The notes under the pieces were generated by a model. The model worked only from the letters and a program-made list of their open reading frames with translations, did no database searches and was not told where the DNA came from. Positions 8,412 through 62,665 of a DNA stretch of 64,000 nucleotides are shown here, in pieces; position 1 is the stretch's first letter, and the number at the start of each line of letters is the position of its first letter. A program made the position numbers and the translations under genes. This DNA comes from Flavobacteriales bacterium (GTDB taxonomy: Bacteria; Bacteroidota; Bacteroidia; Flavobacteriales_F; PHOS-HE28): the NCBI GenBank assembly GCA_016703005.1, contig JADJCX010000018.1:3794-67793 (forward strand), in the 5' to 3' direction.

Positions 8412-10848
8412 ATGGCCATGACTGCCGAGACAAGCACTCTGGTGCTGCCCGTGGAGAACATGGACAGCGAGCACTGCGCGCTGATCGTGGACAAGGCCCT
8501 GGCCACCGTTCCATCGGTGACCGCCCACCATGTGGAGCTGGACAACCGCAGCGCGGTGATCGAGAGCACCACGCCCGTGGAGGCCGTGCGCGATGTGGTG
8601 AAGGCCATCCGCGACAACGGGTACGATGTACCCACCCTGAGGCGCACTTTTCCCGTGACCGGCATGACCTGCGCGAGCTGCGTGAGCAGCGTGGAGAGCA
8701 TGCTGCTTGCCCAGCCCGGTGTGATGAACGCCGCCGTGAACCTGGCCACCAACACCGTGCAGGTGGAGTATGTACCCGGTGTGATCGATGAACGCCGCAT
8801 GCGCGCGGTGGTGCAGAGCATCGGCTACGACCTGCTCATCAGCGAAGAGCGCGAGGCGACCGCCGACCTGGAGGCGATCCAGCGCGCACGCATGACCTCG
8901 CTGAAGCAACGCCTGTGGGCCTCCATCGCACTGAGCACACCGCTGGTGGTCATCGGCATGTTCGTCATGCACGAGCCGTGGGCCAACTTCGTGATGTGGG
9001 CCTTGAGCACACCGGTGGTGCTCGTCTTCGGCCGCTCCTTCTTCATCAACGCATGGAAGCAGGCGAAACACCGCAGCGCCAACATGGACACGCTGGTCGC
9101 CCTGAGCACGGGCGTGGCCTATGTTTTCAGCGTCTTCAACACCACCTACCCTTCGTTCTGGACCAGCCGCGGGCTGATGCCCCACGTCTACTTCGAGGCG
9201 GCGGCGGTGGTCATCACCTTCATCCTGCTCGGCAAGTTCCTGGAGGAACGCGCCAAGGCCGGGACCAGCAGCGCCATCAAGAAACTGATGGGCCTGCGCC
9301 CCAGCACCGTGCTGCGCGAAGGGAGCAACGGTCAGACCAGTGAAGTGCCCATCGCCGATGTCAACGTGGACGACATCCTGGTGGTGCGTCCGGGCGAGAG
9401 CATAGCGGTGGACGGGGAGGTGATCGGCGGCGAGAGCTACGTGGACGAAAGCATGCTCAGCGGTGAGCCGGTGCCCGTGGCGAAGCTCGTGGGCGCGCAG
9501 GTGCTGGCCGGCACCATCAACCAGAAGGGCAGCTTGCGCATGAAGGCCCGCAAGGTCGGTGCCGCCACATTGCTGGCGCAGATCGTGCGCACCGTGCAGG
9601 ACGCACAGGGCAGCAAGGCGCCCGTGCAGAAGCTCGTGGACAAGATCGCGGGCGTCTTCGTGCCCATCGTCATCGGCATCGCGCTTCTCAGCGCCATCGT
9701 GTGGTGGGTCTTCGGAGGCGAGCATGCGTTCACCCAAGGACTGTTGGCCATGGTCACCGTGCTGGTGATCGCCTGCCCGTGCGCACTGGGTCTTGCCACG
9801 CCCACCGCCATCATGGCCGGCATGGGCAAGGGCGCCGAGAACGGGATCCTCATCAAGGACGCCGAAAGCCTGGAGCGCGCACGCAAGATCACCGCCATCG
9901 TGCTGGACAAGACCGGCACCATCACCGAAGGCAAGCCGGATGTGGTGGAGGCCGTAGGCCTCGACGACCAGGAAGCCGCCGCAGCGCTGCTCGCCATCGA
10001 GTCCCGATCGGAGCATCCCCTTGGCGGAAGCGGTGACACGCCACCTGCACACCATCGGCATTCATCAAGCACCAGAGGTAACCGGCTTCGAAAGCCTCAC
10101 CGGCAAGGGCGTGAAAGCCACGGTGAACGGAACCATCTGGTACGTCGGCAACGAGCGCTTGCTCGAAGAGAACGGCATCGTTGTCGAGGGTGCCTACCGC
10201 GAACGGGAGCGGACCTGGCAGGAAGCCGCGCACACCGTGATCTGGTTCGCCGATGCGAAAGAAGTGCGTGCCGCCGTGGCCATCGCAGACCGCATCAAGC
10301 CCAGCGCGATTCAGGCCATCGCCCGGCTGAAAGAGGCCGGTGTGAAGGTCTTCATGCAGACCGGCGATTCGCGGCGCACCGCTCAGGCGGTGGCAAAGGC
10401 AGTGGGCATCGATGACTTCCGCAGCGAAGTGCTGCCCTCAGACAAGGCCGCTTTCGTTACCGCCCTGCAGCAACAAGGCCATGTGGTGGCCATGGTGGGC
10501 GACGGCATCAACGACAGCGAAGCGCTCGCCAAGGCGGACGTGAGCATCGCCATGGGCCAAGGCAGCGACATCGCCATGGACGTGGCGCGCATGACACTCA
10601 TCAGTACCGACCTCAACGCCATCCCACGCGCGATCACGCTCTCGCGCAAGACCGTCAACCTCATCCGCCAGAACCTCTTCTGGGCATTCATCTACAATGT
10701 GTTGGGCATCCCGATCGCGGCCGGTATCCTGTATCCCATCAACGGCTTCCTGCTGAACCCCATGATCGCCGGTGCGGCCATGGCCTTCAGCAGCGTGAGC
10801 GTGGTGAGCAACAGCCTGCGCCTCCGTTGGGCCCGGCTCGACAATTGA
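8412..10848 (+). CDS. copA: copper-translocating P1B-type ATPase (CopA), interrupted by a single-base frameshift near 10017 to 10020 (C4 run)
   Basis: Two N-terminal HMA domains (first degenerate SEHCAL, second [12 protein letters not shown]). CPC motif [20 protein letters not shown] phosphorylation site. The first ORF breaks after SEHPL. The continuation AEAVTRHL ... [11 protein letters not shown] ... resumes in the +1 frame from 10021. An intact gene would have ccc where cccc is seen. Confidence 0.85.
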
Positions 10849-11786: not shown

Positions 11787-14089
11787 ATGGACCTGCTTCG
11801 CTTCCTCCGCATCGCGATCCAGTTGATCGCCCTGTTGATCTTCCTGCTGAGCGGAGACTTGGCCACTGCGCAGGACGGATATGGTACACGCGCATTGGGC
11901 ACCTCGGTGCCGAGCGGCGACTTCACTCCGCGCACTAACCGCTATGACCTCACCATCCGGGATACCATCGTCAACTACACGGGCAAGGCGCGCAAGGCCT
12001 TCACGGTGAACGGGCAGATGCCCATGCCCACCCTCACCTTCACCGAAGGCGATACGGCAGAGATCGTGGTGCACAACGCCATGGAAAAGGAGGAGACCTC
12101 CTTGCACTGGCACGGCATCATCCTGCCGTATCAGCTGGACGGCGTACCCTACCTGACCACGGCCCCTATAAAGGCCGGTGAAACACAGGTGTACAAGTTC
12201 CCCCTTTTGCAGAGCGGCACCTACTGGTACCACTCGCACACCAAGTTGCAAGAGCAGAACGGCATGCACGGCGCGCTCATCATCCACAAGCGGAATGTGG
12301 AGCCCATGCCCGAGCAAGTGCTTATCCTGAGCGAGTGGACGGACATGAAGCCCTTCGAGGTGCACCGCCGCCTGCACAGCGCGAACGATTGGAGCGCCAT
12401 CAAAAGCACCGGATCCGGCCGGGCACCGTGCAGAGCTACAGCGATGCCATCAAGGACGGTGCGCTCGGCGTGAAGCTCACCAACGAGTGGAAGCGCATGA
12501 ACGCCATGGACGTGAGCGATGTCTACTACGACCTCCTTTTCGCCAACGGCAAACCCGTGGACGAAGCGCCGCGGTTCAAGGCCGGTGAGCGTGTGCGCGT
12601 GCGGCTGATCAACGGCGGGGCGAGCAGCTACTTCTGGATCACTTATGCCGGTGGGAAGATGACCGTGGTGGCCAGCGACGGCATCGATGTGGAACCGGTG
12701 GAGGTCGACCGCTTCATCATGGGCATCGCCGAGACCTACGACATCATCGTGACCATACCGGCGGACAGCACGGCCTATGAACTGGTGGCCACCAGCGAGG
12801 ATCGGGTACGCTCCACCTCCCTGTGGCTCGGCAGCGGCATCCGGCAGCTCGCCGCACCGCTCCAGCCGCTGAAGTACTTCGCCGGTATGGAGATGATGAA
12901 CGACATGATGAAGATGAACGGCGACCTCGATGACATGGGCATGAACATGAGCCTCCAGCAGATGGACATGAACGTGGTGATGTACCCGAGATCACCGGCG
13001 CGAAAGCGACACCCGTTGAAGGTGCAGGACATTCCCATGGTGGTGACGAATACAACAGCAATGCGCTGTCCAACATCGTCACGCTCAACTACGCCATGTT
13101 GCGTTCACCCACCAGCACCGCGCTGCCGCCCGGGCCCGTAAAGGAGATGCGCTTCGAGCTCACCGGCAACATGAACCGCTACCTCTGGGCCATCGACAAC
13201 AAGACCGTTTCGGAGACGGACCGCATCCTGATCCGCAAGGGCGAGAACGTGCGCATCATCCTCTACAACAACAGCATGATGCGGCACCCGATGCACCTGC
13301 ACGGCCACTTCTTCCGGGTGGTGAACGGTCAGGGAGACCACTCGCCGCTGAAGAACGTGCTCGACATCATGCCCATGGAGACGGACACCATCGAGTTCGC
13401 CGCCACCGAAACGGGCGACTGGTTCTTCCACTGCCACATCCTCTACCACATGATGAGCGGCATGGGCCGTGTGTTCACTTACGAAGGGACCGGCGCCGAA
13501 CCCGCAACTGCCCGATGTGAAGAAAGCCGCGCGCCTGTTCTCCCGCGACGACAAGGAATGGCACTTCATGGTACAGAACGACTTCGCCACGAACGGCAAC
13601 GACGGCGAGGCCATGTACATGAACAAGCGCTGGAACCTGCAGAGCGAATGGCGCTTGGGCTACATGGAGGAACACGGCCAGGAAGTGGAGACCCACTTCG
13701 GTCGCTACTTCGGCAAGATGCAATGGCTGTTCGTGAACGTGGGCCTGGACTGGCGCACACGCGAAGGACACGGCGGCAACGATCCGGAGGATAACCTCTT
13801 CGGGCAGACCAATACCAAGAACAGCCGGAGCGTGGGGCATATCGGATTCCAGTACACCCTGCCGATGCTCCTGGTCCTTGACGTGCGCATCGACACCGAT
13901 GGCCAACTGCGGTCACAACTGATGCGTGAGGACATCCCGCTAACGCCCCGGATGCGGATGGACCTGATGTACAACACCGATCTGGAGTACATGGCCGGCC
14001 TGCGCTATGTGCTGGACAAGACGTGGGCGATAAGGGCGCACTACGATAGTGACATGGGCTTGGGCGTGGGCATGACGATGAGCTACTGA
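11787..14089 (+). CDS. multicopper oxidase (CopA/PcoA-like) fused to a CopB-like C-terminal region; reading frame broken 3 times (about 12425, 12988, 13503)
   Basis: Four consecutive overlapping ORFs are collinear with a single roughly 765-aa protein. Cupredoxin motifs HWHGIILP, WYHSHT, HPMHLHGH, HCHILYHMMSGM. The final roughly 200 aa (EWHFMVQNDFATNG ... GLDWRTREG ... YDSDMGLGVGM) resemble the outer-membrane CopB family. The breaks sit at CCGGAG read as CCGAG, at a C run, and in a GC-rich run. Confidence 0.75.
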
Positions 14090-30826: not shown

Positions 30827-31911
30827 ATGAGTTCGCTGCTGGAGAAACTGCGCGCCGTGCACGAACGCCGCGCTGAAGTGGAGAAGAGCCTGGCCGACCC
30901 GAGATCGTTATCGCGGACCAGAAGCGGTTCAGGGAACTGAGCCGGAGCTACAAGGACCTGGAGCCGATCGACAATGCCTTCAGGCGCTACGACAAACTGA
31001 CGAGCGAATTGGTCGGTACCAACGAAATGCTGAAGTCCGAGAAGGACTCCGACGTGCTGTCGATGGTCCGTGAGGAGCATGACGCGCTTCGGACGCGGAT
31101 CGAAGCAATGGAGGAGGAGGTGCGCATGTTATTGGTGCCCAAGGACCCCAACGACGACCGCAACTGCACCATGGAAATACGCGCAGGCACCGGTGGCGAC
31201 GAGGCGAGCATTTTCGCCGGGGATCTGTACCGCATGTACACCCGCTACTGCGAACGCCTCGGTTGGAAAGTCGAGGTTGCCGATATCAGCGAAGGCAGTG
31301 CCGGTGGCTTCAAGGAGGTCATCATCAACGTTACCGGCGAAGGGGTCTATGGCGTGCTGAAGTATGAGGCCGGTGTACACCGCGTGCAACGTGTGCCGCA
31401 GACCGAAGCCCAAGGCCGTATCCACACCAGCGCAGCAACCGTCACCGTGCTTCCGGAGGCGGAAGAGTTCGATGTGGAAGTGAAGGAGAGCGATGTGAAG
31501 ATGGAGACCGCCCGCAGCGGTGGGGCCGGTGGCCAGAACGTGAACAAGGTGGAAACGAAGGTGCGCCTCACGCACATCCCCACCGGCATCGTGGTGATGT
31601 GCCAGACCGACCGCAGCCAGTTGGGCAACCGGTTGAAAGCGATGCAAATGCTGCGCACCAAGCTCTATGACGAAGGCTTGCGCAAAGTGCAGGAAGCCGA
31701 GGCCACCCACCGTAAGAGCCAGGTGAGCAGCGGCGACCGTAGTGCCAAGATCCGCACCTACAACTATCCACAAAGCCGCATCACCGATCACCGCATCGAG
31801 TTCACTGCGCACAATCTGCCTGCGGTGATGAACGGCGATCTTCAGGATATCATTGATGCGTTGCAACTGGCCGACCGGACAGAGAAACTGAAAGAGAGCG
31901 CAAGCGCATGA
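30827..31911 (+). CDS. prfA: peptide chain release factor 1; N-terminal 25 codons in another frame (frameshift near 30900)
   Basis: GGQNVNK motif. PQT tripeptide (RF1-type PxT) in [21 protein letters not shown]. An ATG at 30827 gives [25 protein letters not shown]. It then needs one extra nucleotide (CCGGAG read as CCGAG) to join ... [13 protein letters not shown] ... NEMLKSEKD. Confidence 0.8.
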
Positions 31912-32824: not shown

Positions 32825-34120
32825 TTGGCCTCCTTTCCGCACGGCGAGGATCTGTTGCAGTTCATCTGGGAGCAGCAACTGTTCACGCGTGAAGCCTTGC
32901 GCACGGTGGAGGGACATACATTGGAGATCGTGAAACCCGGAAGGCTGCAACCGAACTCCGGTCCCGACTTCCACGATGGTCGCGTTCGGTTCGATGATCA
33001 ATTGCTGGTGGGCAACATCGAGATCCACGTGCAGGCGAGCGAGTGGTTCGCGCACCGTCACCATGAGGACCCGGCATACGACAACGTGATCTTGCACGTG
33101 GTACACACCCACGATATGGATGTGCGCACGAGCAAGGGTGGCCGTGTACCCACGCTTGCGATCGGCGAACGCATCAGTGGCAGCAGCTTGGCCGCATACG
33201 AGCAATTGATGCGCAACAAGGCTTGGGTGCCTTGCGCCAACAGCATCGCTCAGGTTGATCGGCAGCGCATTGGGTTTTGGTTGGAACGCTTGCTCGTGGA
33301 GCGGTTGGAACGCAAGACCAAGGACGTGGAGGCCTTGTTCAAGCACCTCGGGAACGATGAAGCTGAAACATTCTACCAGCAGTTGGCCGGTGGTTTCGGT
33401 TTCAAGGTGAATGCGGAACCCTTCGGTCAACTGGCGCGCACACTTCCATTGAAGACCCTGTTGAAGTACCGCGACGACCCGTTCCGGACGGAAGCCTTGG
33501 TGCTCGGCCAAGCAGGCCTGCTGCAAGTGGATTTTGTTGATGCTCATCCGCGTGCCTTGCAGGAAGAATTCAAGGCCATGGCTGTTCTGCACGAACTGAA
33601 GCCACTTTCTCCCGCGATCTGGAAATTCGGCCGCTTGCGTCCGGCCAACTTCCCAACGGTGCGGCTGGTGCAGTTCGCTCGTTTGTTCACCCACCTCGAT
33701 GGAGCCTTCGGGAAACTGCTCGAATGCGATCGTATTGCCGATCTGTTCCCGCTGTTCGATGTGGAATCCGCTGACTACTGGCGAGACCATTGGATGCTGG
33801 ACGCGCCTTCCGAACCAACGACTAAGCGGCTCGGTCGCACGGCGGCAGAGTTGCTCATCATCAATGTGGTGGTGCCCTTCCTCTTCGCCATGGGTCGCGT
33901 GCGTGGTAGGGAGGAATTGGTGGAGCGGGCAATGGGACTGTTGGAGCAGCTGCCCGCCGAAGCCAATGTGATCACCCGTGGCTGGGAGAAGCTGGGCATC
34001 CCCGCCACCGCCGCCGCACGCTCGCAAGCCCTTATTGAACTGAAGAACGGTTACTGCGGGCAACGCCGTTGCCTACATTGCGTCATCGGGGCTGAACTGC
34101 TCAAACGCACCAACCAATGA
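32825..34120 (+). CDS. DUF2851-family protein
   Basis: 431 aa. N-terminus LLQFIWEQQLF ... L-x-G-x-L-x-I-x-PG ... N-x-G-PDF is characteristic of the Bacteroidota DUF2851 family. Confidence 0.55.
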   Translation: MASFPHGEDLLQFIWEQQLFTREALRTVEGHTLEIVKPGRLQPNSGPDFHDGRVRFDDQLLVGNIEIHVQASEWFAHRHHEDPAYDNVILHVVHTHDMDVRTSKGGRVPTLAIGERISGSSLAAYEQLMRNKAWVPCANSIAQVDRQRIGFWLERLLVERLERKTKDVEALFKHLGNDEAETFYQQLAGGFGFKVNAEPFGQLARTLPLKTLLKYRDDPFRTEALVLGQAGLLQVDFVDAHPRALQEEFKAMAVLHELKPLSPAIWKFGRLRPANFPTVRLVQFARLFTHLDGAFGKLLECDRIADLFPLFDVESADYWRDHWMLDAPSEPTTKRLGRTAAELLIINVVVPFLFAMGRVRGREELVERAMGLLEQLPAEANVITRGWEKLGIPATAAARSQALIELKNGYCGQRRCLHCVIGAELLKRTNQ

Positions 34121-34347
34121 CCGCACGTCTCAAGACTTTCCTCGAACGCCAAGCCTTCGGCGTTTGCGCGTGGTGGGGCGACAAGCTCAACATCAAGCCG
34201 GAGCAGGTGCGCCTCAGCTTCATCTACCTCGGCTGCATTACCGCAGGCTTGCACCTCGTCGTCTATCTGGTAATGGCCTTCGTGCTCCAGCATAAGGAGC
34301 GTATCAAACGGCCCTTCAGCAAGCGGAGCACGGTTTGGGAGTTGTGA
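34117..34347 (+). CDS. PspC-domain protein (small membrane protein)
   Basis: 76 aa. FLERQAFGVCAWWGDKLNIKPEQVRLSFIYLG matches the PspC domain consensus. One TM segment. Confidence 0.65.
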   Translation: MTARLKTFLERQAFGVCAWWGDKLNIKPEQVRLSFIYLGCITAGLHLVVYLVMAFVLQHKERIKRPFSKRSTVWEL

Positions 34348-34373
34348 CCCCTCGCTGGAATTCATAGTGGCTC

Positions 34374-34516
34374 GGGGGGGGGGGGGGGGGGGGGGGGGGG
34401 CCGGGGGGGGGGTTGGGGGGGGGGGGGGGGGGGGGGGGGGGGCCGGGGGGGTTTTTTTTTTTGGGGGGGGTTTTTTTTTTTTGGTTTTGGGTTTTTGTGG
34501 GGTTTGGGGGGGGGGG
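34374..34516. repeat. extreme low-complexity tract made almost only of long G runs and T runs (G~37 CC G~10 TT G~38 CC G7 T11 G8 T12 ... G11)
   Basis: Directly visible between the PspC gene and the oxidoreductase. No A, and only isolated CC pairs, over about 145 nt. Antisense translation gives poly-Pro and poly-Lys nonsense. Confidence 0.9.
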
Positions 34517-34620
34517 CGGTGAATGATTACGGTCGACATCGCCCTTGTTCGGGAAAGGCTCCTGGCAGTCCATCTCCGTTTCTTAGCAGGACCTTTTGCA
34601 CTGCTCACATCCAGGGTCGC

Positions 34621-36348
34621 TTAAAAGCTCTGGGAGATCGAACAACAACTAGCAGGGGAGCTATTGCGGACACCATCATCATAGGCTCAGGCGCTGGCCA
34701 TTTGTCGGGGGGCCGCGACATCGGCCCCTGGCGGCTTTCGGCACGCGCTGGCAAGAAGGTGTTGGTGTTGGAGCAACACTACGTCCCCGGCGGCTGGTGC
34801 CACAGCTTCTTCCTCAATGGTCATCGCTTCAGTCCGGGTGTACACTACATCGGTATGATGGGCGAGGGGGAGAGCACGCGCGAGTTGTACGAAGGCCTTG
34901 ACATCGCCAACGATCTAGTCTTCTTCCGCATGAACCCTGCGGCCTATGAGCACTGCTGGATCGGCGAGCACCGCATTGATATGCCGGCCGGTATCGACAA
35001 CCTGTACGAGCACTTGGCGCAGCGCTTTCCGCACGAGCGTAAAGGCTTGAAGCGCTACCTCACCACTGTGCGCAACGTGAGCGACCAGTTGCAACTGATC
35101 CACCGCATGAGCGGCTTCCTGGATCACCTCACGATCCCCTTCCGCACGCGGCACTTGGGCAAGTACGGCCTCTTCAGTTTGAAGCGCGTGATCGACTGGC
35201 ACATCAAGGATCCCTTGCTGAAGAAGGTGCTCAACGTGCAATGCGGCGATCACGGGTTGCCGCCCAGCCTGGCACCCTTTCCCGTGCATGCTGCCGTGAT
35301 GCAGCACTACTTCGATGGCGGTTACTATCCCATGGGCGGTGGCGCTGGTATCGTGAAGGCGATGACCACGGCGATCAAGAAGCACGGCGGCGTGGTGCGC
35401 ACCGATGCCGGTGTGAAGCGCATTCTATTGGAAGGCGATGGCAAAGCGAAGCGTGCCGTTGGCGTGGAACTCATGAACGGGGAGCGCATCAACGCGTCAA
35501 CGATCGTCTCCAATGCCGACCCGCACAAGACGTACATCGGCATGGTGGGGAAGGAGCACTTGGACAACAAGGTGTTGAAGAAGTTGGCGGCCACCCGGTA
35601 CAGCGTCACCAGCATCATGCTCTTCGTTACCGTGGACATGGATGTGCGCGCGGCGGGTCTCGATTCCGGCAACATCTGGATGCTGCGCAACGTGGACATG
35701 GAAGAACTCTTCCGCGACATGTCGCGCACCGACATCCTCACCGATGATGAGTTCCCCGGGGCCTTCATCAGTTGCCCCACGCTGAAGGATCCCACCAGCT
35801 TCAATGGGCGTTACCACGACATCGAGATGGTGACCTACCTCGACTACAAGGCCTTCGAACCGTTCGAAGGGCTCGGCGAGCGCACGGCCGAGTATGGCAC
35901 GTGGAAGGAGCGCATCAAGGAGAAGATGCTGAACGGGTTGGAGCGTGTGCTCCCCGGTGTGCGAGCGCGCATCGTGCAAGCCGAGATCGGAACGCCCATC
36001 ACCAACGAGCACTACGTGCAGAGCACACGCGGTAGCGTCTATGGCACCGAGAAGACGTTGAAGCATGTCGGCCCGTTCGCGTTCGGTGTGAAAGCGCCGA
36101 TCGAAGGCTTGTACCTCACCGGGGCCAGCACGCTGACGCATGGCGTGGCGGGTGCATCCATCTCAGGCGTGATCACCGCGGCGGCCGTATTGGGTTGCAC
36201 TAAGGACGACCTGTTGAAGCCCGACCCATCGCAGCGTCTGCGTATCCACGATGCTGAGGATGAAACGACGTGGCCCGAGTGGGTGTGGGTGAAACGTGCC
36301 GACAAACGCAGGCGGTTCAAGCCCGTCGCCGTTCGTGCTGCAACGTGA
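34621..36348 (+). CDS. FAD-dependent oxidoreductase, phytoene desaturase (CrtI)-like / retinol-saturase-like; start codon not identifiable
   Basis: Rossmann motif IIIGSGAGHLSGG from about 34672. LVLEQHYVPGGWCHSF motif. Roughly 560 aa. No in-frame ATG, GTG or TTG exists between the low-complexity tract and the Rossmann motif. Confidence 0.6.
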   Translation, partial: LKALGDRTTTSRGAIADTIIIGSGAGHLSGGRDIGPWRLSARAGKKVLVLEQHYVPGGWCHSFFLNGHRFSPGVHYIGMMGEGESTRELYEGLDIANDLVFFRMNPAAYEHCWIGEHRIDMPAGIDNLYEHLAQRFPHERKGLKRYLTTVRNVSDQLQLIHRMSGFLDHLTIPFRTRHLGKYGLFSLKRVIDWHIKDPLLKKVLNVQCGDHGLPPSLAPFPVHAAVMQHYFDGGYYPMGGGAGIVKAMTTAIKKHGGVVRTDAGVKRILLEGDGKAKRAVGVELMNGERINASTIVSNADPHKTYIGMVGKEHLDNKVLKKLAATRYSVTSIMLFVTVDMDVRAAGLDSGNIWMLRNVDMEELFRDMSRTDILTDDEFPGAFISCPTLKDPTSFNGRYHDIEMVTYLDYKAFEPFEGLGERTAEYGTWKERIKEKMLNGLERVLPGVRARIVQAEIGTPITNEHYVQSTRGSVYGTEKTLKHVGPFAFGVKAPIEGLYLTGASTLTHGVAGASISGVITAAAVLGCTKDDLLKPDPSQRLRIHDAEDETTWPEWVWVKRADKRRRFKPVAVRAAT

Positions 36349-41199: not shown

Positions 41200-41257
41200 T
41201 ACCAACCTGTGAGCTGTCAATATGTTGCAAGTCCCGTTGAAGGGGACAAGGCCAGCC

Positions 41258-51665: not shown

Positions 51666-54600
51666 ATGAAGAAGGATGTAAAGCTGACCAGCAACTTCAA
51701 CAAGATCGTCATCAGTCTTGCGAGCCCGGAATTGATCCTGGAGCGCAGCCCATGGTGGAGGTGATCAAGCCGGAGACGATCAACTACCGCACGTACAAGC
51801 CCGAACGCGATGGTTTGTTCTGCGAGCGGATCTTCGGTCCGGTAAAGGATTTCGAATGCCACTGCGGTAAGTACAAGCGTATCCGTTATAAGGGTATCGT
51901 GTGCGATCGCTGCGGTGTGGAAGTGACGGAGAAGAAGGTCCGCCGCGAGCGCATGGGACACATTTCGCTCACCGTTCCGGTGGCGCACATCTGGTACTTC
52001 CGCAGCCTGCCCAATAAGATCGGTTACTTGCTGGGCCTGCCCACCAAGAAGCTCGACCAGATCATCTACTACGAGCGCTATGTGGTTATCCAAGCCGGCA
52101 CCGGTACCGCAACGAACAAGGAGGGTGTTGCCATCCAATACCTCGACTTCCTCACGGAAGAAGAGTACCTCGACGCGCTCGAGCAATTGGGCAAGGACAA
52201 CCAGCACCTCGACGACAGTGACCCGAACAAGTTCATCGCCAAAATGGGCGCTGAAGCATTGAACGACCTGCTCCGTCGTTTGGACTTGGACACCTTGAGC
52301 TATGACCTGCGTCACAAGGCGAATACCGAGACCAGTCAGCAGCGCAAGAACGAAGCACTGAAGCGCCTCAACGTGGTGGAAGCCTTGCGTGAAGCCAACA
52401 CGCGCCGCGAGAACAAGCCCGAATGGATGATCGTGAAGGTGGTTCCGGTCATCCCGCCCGAGTTGCGCCCCCTGGTGCCCCTGGATGGTGGCCGTTTCGC
52501 CACCAGCGATCTGAACGATCTCTATCGCCGTGTGATCATCCGTAACAACCGCTTGAAGCGGTTGGTGGAGATCAAAGCACCTGAGGTGATCCTGCGCAAC
52601 GAAAAGCGCATGTTGCAGGAAGCCGTGGACAGCCTCTTCGACAACAGTCGCAAGAGCAGTGCGGTGAAGAGCGAGAGTAACCGTCCCTTGAAGTCATTGA
52701 GCGATTCGCTCAAGGGCAAGCAGGGCCGGTTCCGTCAGAACCTGCTCGGTAAGCGTGTCGACTACAGTGCACGTTCCGTGATCGTTGTAGGACCCGAACT
52801 GAAATTGCATGAATGCGGTTTGCCCAAGGGTATGGCTGCCGAGTTGTTCAAGCCGTTCATCATCCGCAAGCTCATCGAGCGGGGATTGTGAAGACGGTGA
52901 AGAGCGCCAAGAAGATCGTGGACAAGAAGGAGCCCGTGGTGTGGGACATTTTGGAGAGCGTGCTGAAGGGCCATCCTGTGCTCCTGAACCGCGCACCAAC
53001 GCTCCACCGTCTGGGTATCCAAGCTTTCCAGCCCAAGTTGATCGAGGGCAAGGCCATCCAGTTGCACCCGCTCGTTTGTACGGCGTTCAACGCTGACTTC
53101 GATGGTGACCAAATGGCCGTACACGTGCCCCTCGGACACGCTGCTATCCTGGAAGCCCAACTGCTCATGTTGGCCAGCCACAACATCCTGAACCCTGCCA
53201 ACGGTGCGCCTATCGCGGTGCCTAGCCAGGACATGGTGCTAGGGTTGTATTACATCACCAAAGGGCGGAAGAGCGAAAAGGACCATCCTGTGAAGGGTGA
53301 AGGCCGTACGTTCTACAGCCCTGAGGAGGTGGTTATCGCTTACAACGAGAACCGCGTGGACTTGCACGCTTGGATCAAGGTGCGTTGGACCGGTGTGGAT
53401 GGCAAGAGCCAGATCATCGAGACGACCGTTGGTCGTGTATTGTTCAATGATGTGGTGCCGGATGAGGCTGGCTACATCAACGAGCTGCTGACCAAAAAGG
53501 CTCTTCGCGATATCATCGGCCGTGTGCTGAAGACGGCTGGCACAGCTAAAGCCGCCAAGTTCCACGACGATATCAAAGAGATTGGCTTCAACATCGCCTT
53601 CAAGGGTGGTCTGTCCTTCAACTTGGAGGACGTGATCGTGCCAGACGAGAAGGAGAAGTTGGTGAAAGCAGCGCAGAAGGAAGTGGACGAAGTGATGGGC
53701 AACTACAACATGGGCCTGATCACCAACAATGAGCGTTACAACCAGGTCATCGACATCTGGACACACACGAATAGCCGTGTGACCAAAACGTTGATGGACC
53801 GCCTCGCAGCCGACCGTCAGGGCTTCAACTCCATCTTCATGATGATGGACAGTGGTGCTCGTGGTAGTAAAGAGCAGATCCGTCAGCTCAGCGGTATGCG
53901 GGGTCTTATGGCCAAGCCGCAGAAGAGCGGTGGTGGTGGTTCGCAGGACATTATCGAGAACCCCATCCTCTCGAACTTCAAAGAAGGACTTTCGATCCTT
54001 GAGTACTTCATCAGCACGCACGGTGCCCGTAAGGGTCTCGCCGATACCGCGCTGAAGACCGCTGACGCAGGTTACCTGACCCGCCGTCTAGTGGACGTTG
54101 CGCAGGACGTGGTGATCAACGCCGAGGACTGCGGAACGCTCCGTGGTCTGGTGGCAACGGCACTGAAAAAGAACGAGGAGATCGTGGAGTCGCTCCATGA
54201 TCGTATCCTTGGCCGTTGTGCGGTTCACGATGTCTATCACCCACAGACCGGCGAACTGATCGTGTCGAGCGGTGAGCAGATCACCGAGGATATTGCCACG
54301 ATCATCGGCGCCAGCCCGATCGAGGAGGTGGAGATCCGCAGCGTCCTGACGTGTGAGCAGAAGAAAGGCGTTTGCACCAAGTGCTACGGTCGCAACCTTG
54401 CGACAGGTCGTATGGTGCACATTGGTGAGGCTGTCGGCGTTATCGCCGCACAGTCCATCGGTGAACCAGGTACCCAGCTTACACTGCGTACGTTCCACGT
54501 AGGTGGTGTTGCAGGTAAGATCACCGAGGAAAGCGAGGTGAAAGCCAAATATGATGGCAAGCTCGAGATCGATGAGCTGCGCACTGTGAAGCGGAAGGAC

Positions 54601-55965
54601 CGCAAGGGCGATGATGCCGAGGTGGTCATCAGCCGCAGTACCGAGATGCGCATCGTTGACAGTAACACGGGCATTGTGCTCACCACGAGTGTGATCCCAT
54701 ACGGCGCCTTCCTGTATGCCAAGAACGGCAAGTCAGTGAAGAAGGGCGACGTGATCTGCACATGGGACCAGTACAACGCCGTCATCATCTCCGAATTGAG
54801 CGGTAAGCTCGAGTTCGAAAGCATCGAAGAGAGCGTCACCTACCGTGAGGAGATCGACGAACAAACCGGGTTCACCGAGAAAGTGATCGTGGAAAGTCGC
54901 GACAAGCGCAAGAACCCCACGATCAAGATCATGGACCTGAAGAGCAAGGAGGAAGTGAAGAGCTACTCGTTGCCCGTAGGTGCGCACATCATGGTGAAAG
55001 AGGGTGACAAGGTTGAAGCCGGCGACGTGCTGGTGAAGATCCCACGCACCAGTGGAAAGGGCGGTGATATCACCGGTGGTCTGCCACGTGTAACGGAACT
55101 GTTCGAAGCCCGTAACCCGAGCAACCCTGCAGTGGTCAGCGAGATCGACGGTATCATCTCTTACGGCAAGATCAAGCGCGGTAACCGCGAGATCAACGTG
55201 GAGAGCCGTACCGGCGAGCGCAAGACGTATCTGGTTCCCTTGAGCAAGCACATCCTCGTGCAGGAGAACGACTTCATCAAGGCGGGGGCTCCATTGAGCG
55301 ATGGTAGCATCAGCCCGATGGATATCCTCGACATCCAAGGCCCGACACGTGTGCAGGAGTACCTCGTTGATGAGGTACAAGAGGTTTATCGCATGCAGGG
55401 TGTGAAGATCAACGACAAGCACTTCGAGGTGATCGTACGCCAGATGATGCGCAAAGTTGAGATCGAGGATCCCGGGGATACCCGCTTCCTCGAGAAGCAG
55501 AGCGTTAACAAGTCCGAGTTCATGGGTGCCAACGACGGTATCTACGACCTGATGGTCGTTGTTGATGCTGGCGACAGCTCCAGCTTCAAGGAAGGCCAGA
55601 TCATTACCGCCCGCAAACTGCGCGATGAGAACAGCGCCCTGAAGCGGAAGGATGCGAAACCGGTTGAGGCCCGCCACGCGGCACCCGCAACCGCCCGCAC
55701 CATGTTGCAGGGTATTACGCGTGCCTCTTTGCAAACGGAGAGCTTCATGAGCGCCGCCTCGTTCCAAGAGACGACCAAGGTGTTGAACGAAGCTGCCGTG
55801 AGCGCGAAGGAGGATTTCCTTACTGGCTTGAAGGAGAACGTGATCGTTGGTCACTTGATCCCTGCCGGTACCGGCACGCGCCGTTTCCAGAAGAACATCG
55901 TGGGTAACAAAGACGATATGGAGCGGATGGCCGCTGAGCGTGTTGTTGCGGTTACGGAGGACTGA
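51666..55965 (+). CDS. rpoC: DNA-directed RNA polymerase subunit beta'; reading frame broken twice (about 51750 and about 52883)
   Basis: An ATG at 51666 gives [28 protein letters not shown]. The frame then shifts before [30 protein letters not shown] second break lies between ... [10 protein letters not shown] and [10 protein letters not shown] ... [16 protein letters not shown]4 run appears where a G5 run is needed to restore ERGIVKT. Confidence 0.9.
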
Positions 55966-60382: not shown

Positions 60383-62665
60383 TCACTCCTGCGCCCGTTG
60401 CGCGAAGATCACGTACCCGAAATTCAGGCTAACGGCCCATGGGTTCGGCAAGCCGTCGATGTAGCTGGTGTTGAACCACACCGGGCCGATGGGGCTTTGG
60501 TAGATGAGCGAGCCGCTGGCCAGGAAGTAGCGATCGGAGATCGCAGTGCCTTCCGTCGAACCGTCGTCCTCCGAGCGTTGGATCTTCTTGTAGGGTTGGA
60601 ACACGTAGCCCTCCAGCCGCAGGTCGAACTTGTTCTTGGCCACAGCAATGATGGTGCGCACGCCACCAGCGGCGTACTGGCTGGCCCGGAAATCCTCAAG
60701 AAAGTACGTCTTGCTTTCCGGCGTCGGTTGGAAGACCGGTGCGCGCGCAACGGTCGCGGTGTAATTGCTGAAGAATGGATAGCCACTATACACCCCTTCC
60801 AACAAGAAGCCGAACTTGAACACCCCACGCGGCAGGAAATATTTGTCCAGCGTGACTTTTGCCACGAGCCATTCGTGGTGATGGCCGATGGGTTCGCGGG
60901 AAGTTTCGCCAACGGTTCCCGGCGTTGTCACCTCATTGCCGCCAAAATACCGCAGTTCCGCCTTCAAGCACTCGCCGGCGTTCGCGTGCTGTTTCCGGTT
61001 GAGGCTGTTGCGTTCGAGCATCAGACCGGTGGTTACATAATTGAACTCGGTTACATCCGCCGTGTCGGTTGCGCTCCATTCCAGCGACTGGTAATAGCTG
61101 TCCCGGCTCTGCGCGTATTTGAAGTCGTAGCGCAGCAGGCCCTTGTTGCCAACGCTCAGCCCGGTGCTGACGCCGCCCCAACTCTCGCGCAGCACGATGT
61201 AACTCGGCCGCACTTCATCGAAGAACGTCGTGAAACTGCTGAAGTGATCCCAGCGATGGATCGTGAAGGCCGGCTCCACGTACAATGGGATATTCGTACT
61301 GAAGTCGATACGCAGTTTGGCTTGTCCCGCCGCGTAGAATTTCCCGAAATAGGAAAGCGCTTCCAAGCGCGCGCTGGCGCGACCGAAGATGTTGTACCGT
61401 AAGCCGACCATCCCGGTGTTGATCGGTCGGCTGCTGAAGATCCCCCCAAAGCGCACATCAAGTTTCTTTTCGCGCTTCACCAACAGCTCAAGATCATAGT
61501 TCCCGTTCAGCGGGTTGTAGGTGGCTTTCGGGTGCAGGCCGGCCACGTTGTTGTCCGCATATAGTCTGAAGTAGCGTGGCTTTAGCCCAGCCGTGGTCAG
61601 CGGCTGCGGATCGCGTCAAGCAGCGTGCGTTCCACATACTTCGACTGCTTCTTCGTCAATCCCTCAATGCGCACATCGCCGAACACGGGTGCATGCATCT
61701 TTCGCTTCCAATCCGCGCGTCGCACGCTGGTGTCTTCAGCAGTCTGGTATTTCGAGATCATCGCCTTGATCTCCGGCATTCGTGCCATGGTGGCCTTGTA
61801 GCCGTCCTCGATCGTGGTGGCCGGATCGCTGAAATCGAACAACGTCGTAGCGCTTTGCGGTAGCACGATCACGCTGTGCTCGCATGGAATGGTATAATCC
61901 GTTTGCTGCTGCATCATCGCGCGCAACTGGCTCATCAGGTCGTCCTCGTTGGGGGGGGCCATTGTTGCCCACGTTACTGCCAATGATCGCATCGGGCAGG
62001 AAGGCGTTGTACAACACATCGCTGGGGAAGTTGTTGAACAAGCCGCCGTCCATCATCAAATGCCCATCAACGCGGATGGGTTTGAAGTAGAACGGGTAAC
62101 TCATGCTGGCCCTGACGGCCTGCGCGAGATCGCCTTTTGAAAAGATGACCGGCCTGTTCGCCGTAATGTCGCTGGCCACGCAGCGGAACGGGACGAAAAG
62201 ACTGTCCATGTCGTACTTGGCCGCCGCGCTCGCAGGGGCGAAGCTCCGCATCTGTTCAAAGTCGATGAGCACCGGGCTGCGCAGGTTGGTGGGCAGACTT
62301 AACTGAATCGTGGTGTCGAGATCCAACTTGACGGTCACCAGAGAGGCATCGGGGGCGTCCTGTTTGAAGTAGTACATGTATTCATCCTCGATCCCACCCC
62401 TCGCCATCAGTTTGTTCAAGTCGGTATTGAACACCGAATCGATCTCACTGGGCGAGTACCCAGCAGCGTACATACCGCCGATCGGCGCCCCCATGCTGCT
62501 ACCGGCGATGCAATCAATGGGAATGTCGTTCTCCTCCAATGCCTTCAGTACACCGATGTGCACCATGCCCACGGCTCCGCCTCCGCTGAGCACTATGCCC
62601 ACGCGTTGCGCGTTGACGCTGAGCGCCAGCACAAGCAACAAGAACAGGGAAGGGATGCGGGGCAT
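60383..62665 (-). CDS. patatin-like phospholipase fused to a C-terminal Omp85/BamA-like beta-barrel; reading frame broken about 61955 (G8/C8 run) and about 61590
   Basis: Signal peptide. GIVLSGGGAVGMVHIGVLKALEE oxyanion motif, GSSMG nucleophile, MDGG Asp motif. The downstream ORFs are collinear (... IIGSNVGNNGPP / NEDDLMSQLR ... LLDAIRS / PQPLTTAGLKPRYFRLYADNNVAGLHPK ...). C-terminal roughly 390 aa is beta-strand rich. Confidence 0.65.

Follow-up and report, generated by a model that had tools for sequence, protein, structure and literature searches.

A G/T-rich block and the noisy sequence behind it, between pspC and an oxidoreductase gene of a Flavobacteriales contig, as a probable assembly artefact

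Comparison with related assemblies indicates that a tract made almost entirely of G and T, together with the 223 nt that follow it, is very probably (roughly 94%) an artefact of sequencing or assembly and would represent no biological feature. Throughout, the window is the whole 64-kb stretch of DNA that was analysed, and the patch in question lies between a pspC gene and the gene for an FAD/NAD(P) oxidoreductase. This reading is drawn from the absence of the patch in the relatives, from the persistence of collinear true sequence with in-register insertions, from the destruction of the start codon ATG and of the GxGxxG motif in a gene that is otherwise sound, and from further indels that shift the frame of other genes in the same contig. 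The original prediction had offered an artefact and a genuine G-quadruplex-forming or phase-variable tract as its two options, and ten tract-free relatives, order-preserved damage that consists of insertions only, and the other frameshifts of the contig all point to the former. The significance of the patch is for quality control only: it should be masked or re-polished, and neither the label of a pseudogene nor that of a gene without a start should be given to the oxidoreductase, its true ATG lying 122 nt downstream of pspC.

The G/T tract and the clean locus in related assemblies

The locus is made up of the following features, given in window coordinates.

34117..34347, + strand: PspC-domain gene, 76 aa, intact, part of the clean flank upstream of the patch
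34374..34516, no strand assigned: probably spurious G/T block, between ...CATAGTGGCTC and the CGG... of the true spacer
34517..34739, + strand: noisy stretch of 223 nt, in which 72 inserted bases are mixed into the true spacer (122 nt) and the opening ~12 codons of the oxidoreductase
34645..34652, + strand: remains of the split ATG (A 34645, T 34650 and G 34652 in one optimal alignment; the placement is non-unique)
34699..34739, + strand: corrupted dinucleotide-binding motif and helix, GSGAGHLSGGRDIGPWRLSARAGKK in the window versus GSGAGGLSAALCLARAGKK in the relatives
34740..36348, + strand: rest of the FAD/NAD(P) oxidoreductase gene, intact (retinol-saturase-like member of the CrtI superfamily; 556 aa in relatives)

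Run-length encoding places the G/T-only block at 34374-34516 of the window, a length of 143 nt that includes only five C, with the runs G27 CC G10 TT G28 CC G7 T11 G8 T12 GG T4 G3 T5 G T G4 T3 G11. The location of the tract and its lack of a match elsewhere in the 64 kb agree with what had been described from the sequence, and the two longest G runs, first given as ~37 and ~38 nt, are corrected here to 27 and 28 nt. Outside the tract, the only homopolymer of at least 7 nt in the 64 kb is a single G8 at 61951. Uninterrupted stretches of G and T reach 72, 40 and 27 nt within the tract versus at most 15 nt elsewhere in the window, and by our own arithmetic the chance of a 72-nt G/T-only run is about 1e-22 per position, at G+T of about 0.49. 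TRF returned just two-copy pseudo-periods of 39, 19-20, 17 and 9 nt and no regular tandem unit of fixed period in the tract, and a scan for (TTTTGGGG)2 found matches there solely at 2 mismatches. As the tract has no regular repeat unit, its likeness to a telomere is superficial, and the earlier description of telomere-like TTTTGGGG/TTGGGG segments was dropped.

The relatives used for comparison are ten independent assemblies from the same Flavobacteriales population, wastewater or activated-sludge MAGs and contigs, with 91-99.5% nucleotide identity to the window. They are GCA_016718415.1 (L001/L005, a Flavobacteriales MAG and the source of protein P0001), RBC076 (L002/L007), JGI Ga0138256 (L003/L010), GCA_016706435.1 (L004), a 3.4-Mb contig of GCA_963851765.1 (L006), JGI Ga0673000_0023323 (L008, more distant, at about 92-95% identity), GCA_017989535.1 (L009), a Logan assembly (L011) and two ENA wastewater assemblies (L012 and L013). 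An exact 48-mer scan found RBC076 (L002) among genome contigs and a 4.3-kb JGI contig (L003) among metagenome contigs, and exact matches to the PspC protein were found in 23 contigs.

A G/T tract is present at this site in none of the ten related assemblies. Instead, the spacer between pspC and the oxidoreductase gene is a plain 122 nt followed by ATG (the spacer of L008 is longer), and the start of the gene reads MQPDTIIIGSGAGGLSAALCLARAG. A normal spacer of this kind, ending in an ATG, is the outcome of an orthologue comparison that the original prediction had named as confirming an artefact. The alignments of all relatives to the window break at exactly 34373 and restart at 34531. L001 is collinear with window positions 24464-46364 at 96.6-97.9% nucleotide identity; upstream of the patch, positions 34059-34373 match L012 and L013 at 100% identity, and downstream of it, from 34740 onward, identity to L001 and L004 is 98.4-99%. 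Within the spacer, 75 nt (aligned between window 34531-34612 and L001 9912-9986) show 100% identity between strains whose divergence reaches 9% elsewhere, which suggests a conserved promoter or regulatory element in this part of the sequence. The possibility that the true spacer holds a structured RNA or riboswitch was also considered and set aside, the clean orthologous locus having no Rfam match at E<=1.

Two of the relatives have particularities of their own at this locus. L008 carries a genuine extra ORF (1832-2122) for a 96-aa Cys-rich product between pspC and the oxidoreductase gene, and its spacer region, 412 nt versus 122 nt, is free of the G/T tract. L004 (3354-5083) has the clean spacer and the ATG but lacks a recorded oxidoreductase gene at this place; GSG is replaced by GPG in its sequence, with a possible frameshift farther downstream.

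Anatomy of the damage and state of the oxidoreductase gene

Across window positions 34374-34739, 154 of the 158 orthologous bases are kept in order, as determined by the longest common subsequence (LCS) with the orthologous stretch from GTGGCTC| to |GGCACGCGC; the LCS for composition-matched shuffles is 118.8±2.5, with a maximum of 125. Traceback of the LCS assigns 212 extra bases to this interval, with approximately 140 of them in the G/T block and the other 72 (25 g, 19 a, 18 c and 10 t) dispersed through the 223 nt that follow; just 4 true bases are lost or changed. With the true bases kept and so many inserted, it follows that spurious bases were added to an intact sequence, none of which appears to have been overwritten or collapsed. 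Accordingly, the proposals that real sequence had been overwritten or lost here, or that a homopolymer had collapsed, do not hold, the damage being the opposite of a collapse. In BLAST alignment to L001, positions 34536-34739 contain 12 insertions and 0 deletions beside the big block, and indels are rare in the rest of the 21.6 kb aligned. An LCS of this kind, insertion-only and order-preserved against a close relative, is a simple diagnostic for telling read noise from real insertions.

At 34517 the true sequence picks up again in register, with neither loss nor duplication of a base at the junction. An example of the inserted noise is the change of CGGAGTAGGTCG into CGGtgAatGaTtAcGGTCGa. In the start region, CAATGCAAC has become CAAcaacTaGCAggggAgC, so that the ATG is split; the start of the orthologues reads CAACAATGCAACCGGACACC (M Q P D T). 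Farther on, the motif has changed from GGCGGTTTGTCGGCCGCGTTGTGCTT to GGCcaTTTGTCGGggggCCGCGacaTcggccccTGgcgGCTTtc, a net gain of 18 nt that stays in frame by chance, and the protein predicted from the window (...AIADTIIIGSGAGHLSGGRDIGPWRLSARAG) contains six extra residues within the GxGxxG helix, which is invariant in homologues.

The genes upstream of the oxidoreductase are prfA, pyrF, a DUF2851 gene (32825-34120) and pspC. The oxidoreductase itself contains the Pfam domains Amino_oxidase and NAD_binding_8; the NAD_binding_8 match begins at profile position 13, and the family models match from residues at ~34669. Against the NCBIfam models TIGR02734 (crtI_fam) and TIGR02730 (carotenoid isomerase), it scores 140 and 153.8 bits, with cut-offs of 238.1 and 586.9, respectively. 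The gene, earlier labelled "CrtI-like", is a member of the wider Amino_oxidase/NAD_binding_8 superfamily and lies under the cut-offs of both crtI_fam and carotenoid isomerase. Its homologues carry the names 'NAD(P)/FAD-dependent oxidoreductase' or 'all-trans-retinol 13,14-reductase', and the best of them, P0001, is a protein of 556 aa that starts MQPDTIIMGSGAGGLSAALCLARAG and has 96-97% amino acid identity to the window product. In the protein alignment with P0001, the ~540 remaining codons of the oxidoreductase contain 0 stops and 0 frameshifts. As these codons are so nearly identical and are free of stops and frameshifts, there is no pseudogene decay, and real pseudogenisation was ruled out by the intact rest of the ORF.

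It had been stated that this ORF has no ATG, GTG or TTG between the tract and its Rossmann motif. This is correct in that there is no ATG or plausible start near the motif, and it needs amending in that canonical in-frame starts do occur upstream, namely TTG at 34495 and TTG at 34504, both inside the tract, and a GTG at 34519-34521, 3 nt past the end of the tract. None of the alternative starts considered (TTG 34495, TTG 34504, GTG 34519 and the non-canonical ATT 34663) is the conserved ATG of the orthologues. Judging from the relatives, the true locus is pspC, the conserved 122-nt spacer and a 556-aa FAD oxidoreductase that begins at the ATG (MQPDTIIIGSGAGG...), and the clean sequence of the locus is predicted to read ...GTGGCTCCGGAGTAGGTCGCATCGCCC...CAACAATGCAACCGGACACC....

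Other errors in the same contig

Several further genes of the window are interrupted.

51752-52891 and 52813-55965, + strand: rpoC (β' subunit), split into overlapping ORFs of 379 and 1050 aa
~30904, in the gene at 30828-31911: prfA split, +2 nt (AT) versus L001
32794: frameshift in the DUF2851 gene, seen in alignment with four relatives, T5 to T4 versus L004 and L006; L005 and L009 read CTTTT there
27747: TPR/OmpA-domain gene with its 5' end out of frame through +C (GAGCTG to GAGCCTG)
8412-10848, + strand: copper P-type ATPase in two overlapping ORFs (HMA and E1-E2_ATPase, then Hydrolase)
11787-13794, + strand: multicopper oxidase in three pieces, from two sites (Cu-oxidase_3, Cu-oxidase, Cu-oxidase_2)

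The two pieces of rpoC divide the Pfam domain RNA_pol_Rpb1_2 between them (positions 1-43 and 69-165), and as rpoC is essential, its frameshift is most likely a sequence error. Release factor 1, encoded by prfA, is reduced to an ORF of 300 aa in the window versus 360 aa in L001, and the true prfA sequence of the strain may be GACCCGGAGATCGTT with one G dropped. The DUF2851 gene has lost its first 15 codons, so that in the window it starts at a TTG and encodes 431 aa, versus 446 aa in six relatives, and the TPR/OmpA ORF is 601 aa long in the window versus 671 aa in L001. The splits in the copper ATPase (~10021-10415) and the multicopper oxidase (~12335-12473 and ~13096-13141) are probable frameshift errors. 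The region that holds these two genes has a GC content of 61-65%, above that of the rest of the window.

The density of frameshifts in the contig is about 1 per 8 kb. Homopolymer indels and frameshifts are documented in Nanopore MAGs, and frameshifts in essential genes at this density are characteristic of a long-read assembly that was polished imperfectly (PMC9262707). The contig looks like an imperfectly polished, error-prone assembly of the long-read type, resembling unpolished Nanopore MAGs (Sereika et al. 2022, PMC9262707) in that indels of 1-2 nt, one of them T5 to T4, split its genes, and differing from them at the patch, where a 143-nt insertion and a trail of 72 nt stand in place of errors of 1-2 nt. 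As the essential genes rpoC and prfA are both frameshifted, the deposited sequence is unreliable, and at about one frameshift per 8 kb any statistics on gene content, pseudogenes or G-quadruplexes taken from the contig would be misleading.

Two further differences from L001 lie downstream of the oxidoreductase gene. At ~16140 of L001 (window 40816), a C4 to C3 deletion in L001 hits the C-terminal part of an acyl-CoA dehydrogenase-like gene; the window has this gene intact, and L001 has no gene call there, so that homopolymer errors are present in both MAGs. At positions 41211-41224, directly downstream of rpsU (S21), the window has 14 nt (GAGCTGTCAATATG) more than L001, perhaps as natural intergenic variation.

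Proposed mechanism and competing explanations

As a mechanism, we propose that the contig consensus took up a low-quality 'junk' segment from a single-molecule long read, possibly one from Nanopore or PacBio sequencing that was stalled or noisy at this point. Such a segment would have kept nearly all true bases in order while a burst of 140-143 nt of G and T calls was added at one point, followed by a trail of over-called insertions of 1-12 nt across ~220 nt. Local coverage would have been too low for the noisy read to be outvoted, and short-read or consensus polishing would have failed at the patch because reads cannot align across ~210 extra bases. What speaks against an artefact is the rate of insertion, ~45% per true base with almost no deletions, which is above the typical average error of Nanopore or PacBio, so that the read segment would have to be aberrant locally and the coverage at this site very low. 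It has been reported that long-read errors cluster in low-quality 'junk' segments that give rise to large assembly indels, notably at metagenomic coverage (LaPierre et al. 2019, PMC6833143), and junk reads and glitches in long reads have been documented (Wick & Holt, PMC6966772). The patch is like these cases in being a local burst of error in good sequence, in its low-complexity content, in the large insertion left in the assembly and in its metagenome setting, in which coverage may be low; compared by sequence alone, it is more extreme than their average, being near-pure G/T and almost wholly insertional.

The same kind of read could have entered the contig by another route, as a bridge or gap-fill between two accurate contigs in hybrid assembly or scaffolding rather than through a failure of the consensus. 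The sharp boundaries of the patch (clean up to 34373 and from 34740) and its resemblance to a single raw read fit this, but the flanking sequence that would have to be accurate is also frameshifted many times, which speaks for a long-read origin of the whole contig, and we regard such a bridge as unlikely. Bridging by one raw long read would in any case be a variant of the main explanation and not a true alternative to it. The original prediction had named a two-colour poly-G or no-signal run; on this view, such tails from Illumina two-colour instruments (NextSeq/NovaSeq) would have been assembled into the contig or would have joined two contigs. In two-colour chemistry, G is a dark call and T a single-channel call, and the block does share with such tails a G-dominated run without biological counterpart, being mostly G with nearly all of the remainder T. 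However, a poly-G tail terminates a read and inserts nothing, whereas the true sequence here returns in register, with no base lost or duplicated at the junction, and the 72 inserted bases in the next 223 nt are indel noise foreign to sequencing-by-synthesis. The other errors of the contig, indels and frameshifts of 1-2 nt, are likewise typical of long reads rather than of Illumina. We therefore rejected the two-colour mechanism, on the in-register resumption and the indel-type noise, as very improbable.

There remain the explanations in which the patch is real DNA. A genuine G/T-rich insertion private to this strain, forming a G-quadruplex (G4) or varying in phase and inactivating the oxidoreductase, is suggested by the deposited tract itself, in which G runs of at least 3 nt are numerous enough for G4s; the site is a promoter or 5' region, the usual place of contingency tracts, and the relatives are other strains rather than the same DNA. 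Nevertheless, the element is missing from all of them: the 10 assemblies of related strains show neither a G/T tract at the site, as the phase-variable or G-quadruplex reading of the original prediction would have it, nor a length variant, and 75 nt of the spacer are fully conserved. Moreover, the rest of the oxidoreductase gene has not decayed, and the frameshifts in the essential rpoC and prfA mark the sequence itself as unreliable. To our knowledge, no mutational process scatters dozens of insertions of 1-12 nt over ~220 bp with the order of the bases preserved, as 72 such insertions over 220 nt would demand, and a strain-private insertion accordingly receives next to no weight from us. A very recent knock-out of the oxidoreductase by non-templated or slippage insertion of G and T along with scattered micro-insertions, for example through some novel process of error-prone repair or insertion, is just as far-fetched. 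Compared with known contingency tracts and promoter G-quadruplexes, the tract is alike in placing G runs upstream of a gene or in its 5' end, and unlike in being neither conserved nor variable in length among strains, in its 143 nt with T runs, and in the scattered insertions that wreck the start codon and the cofactor-binding motif.
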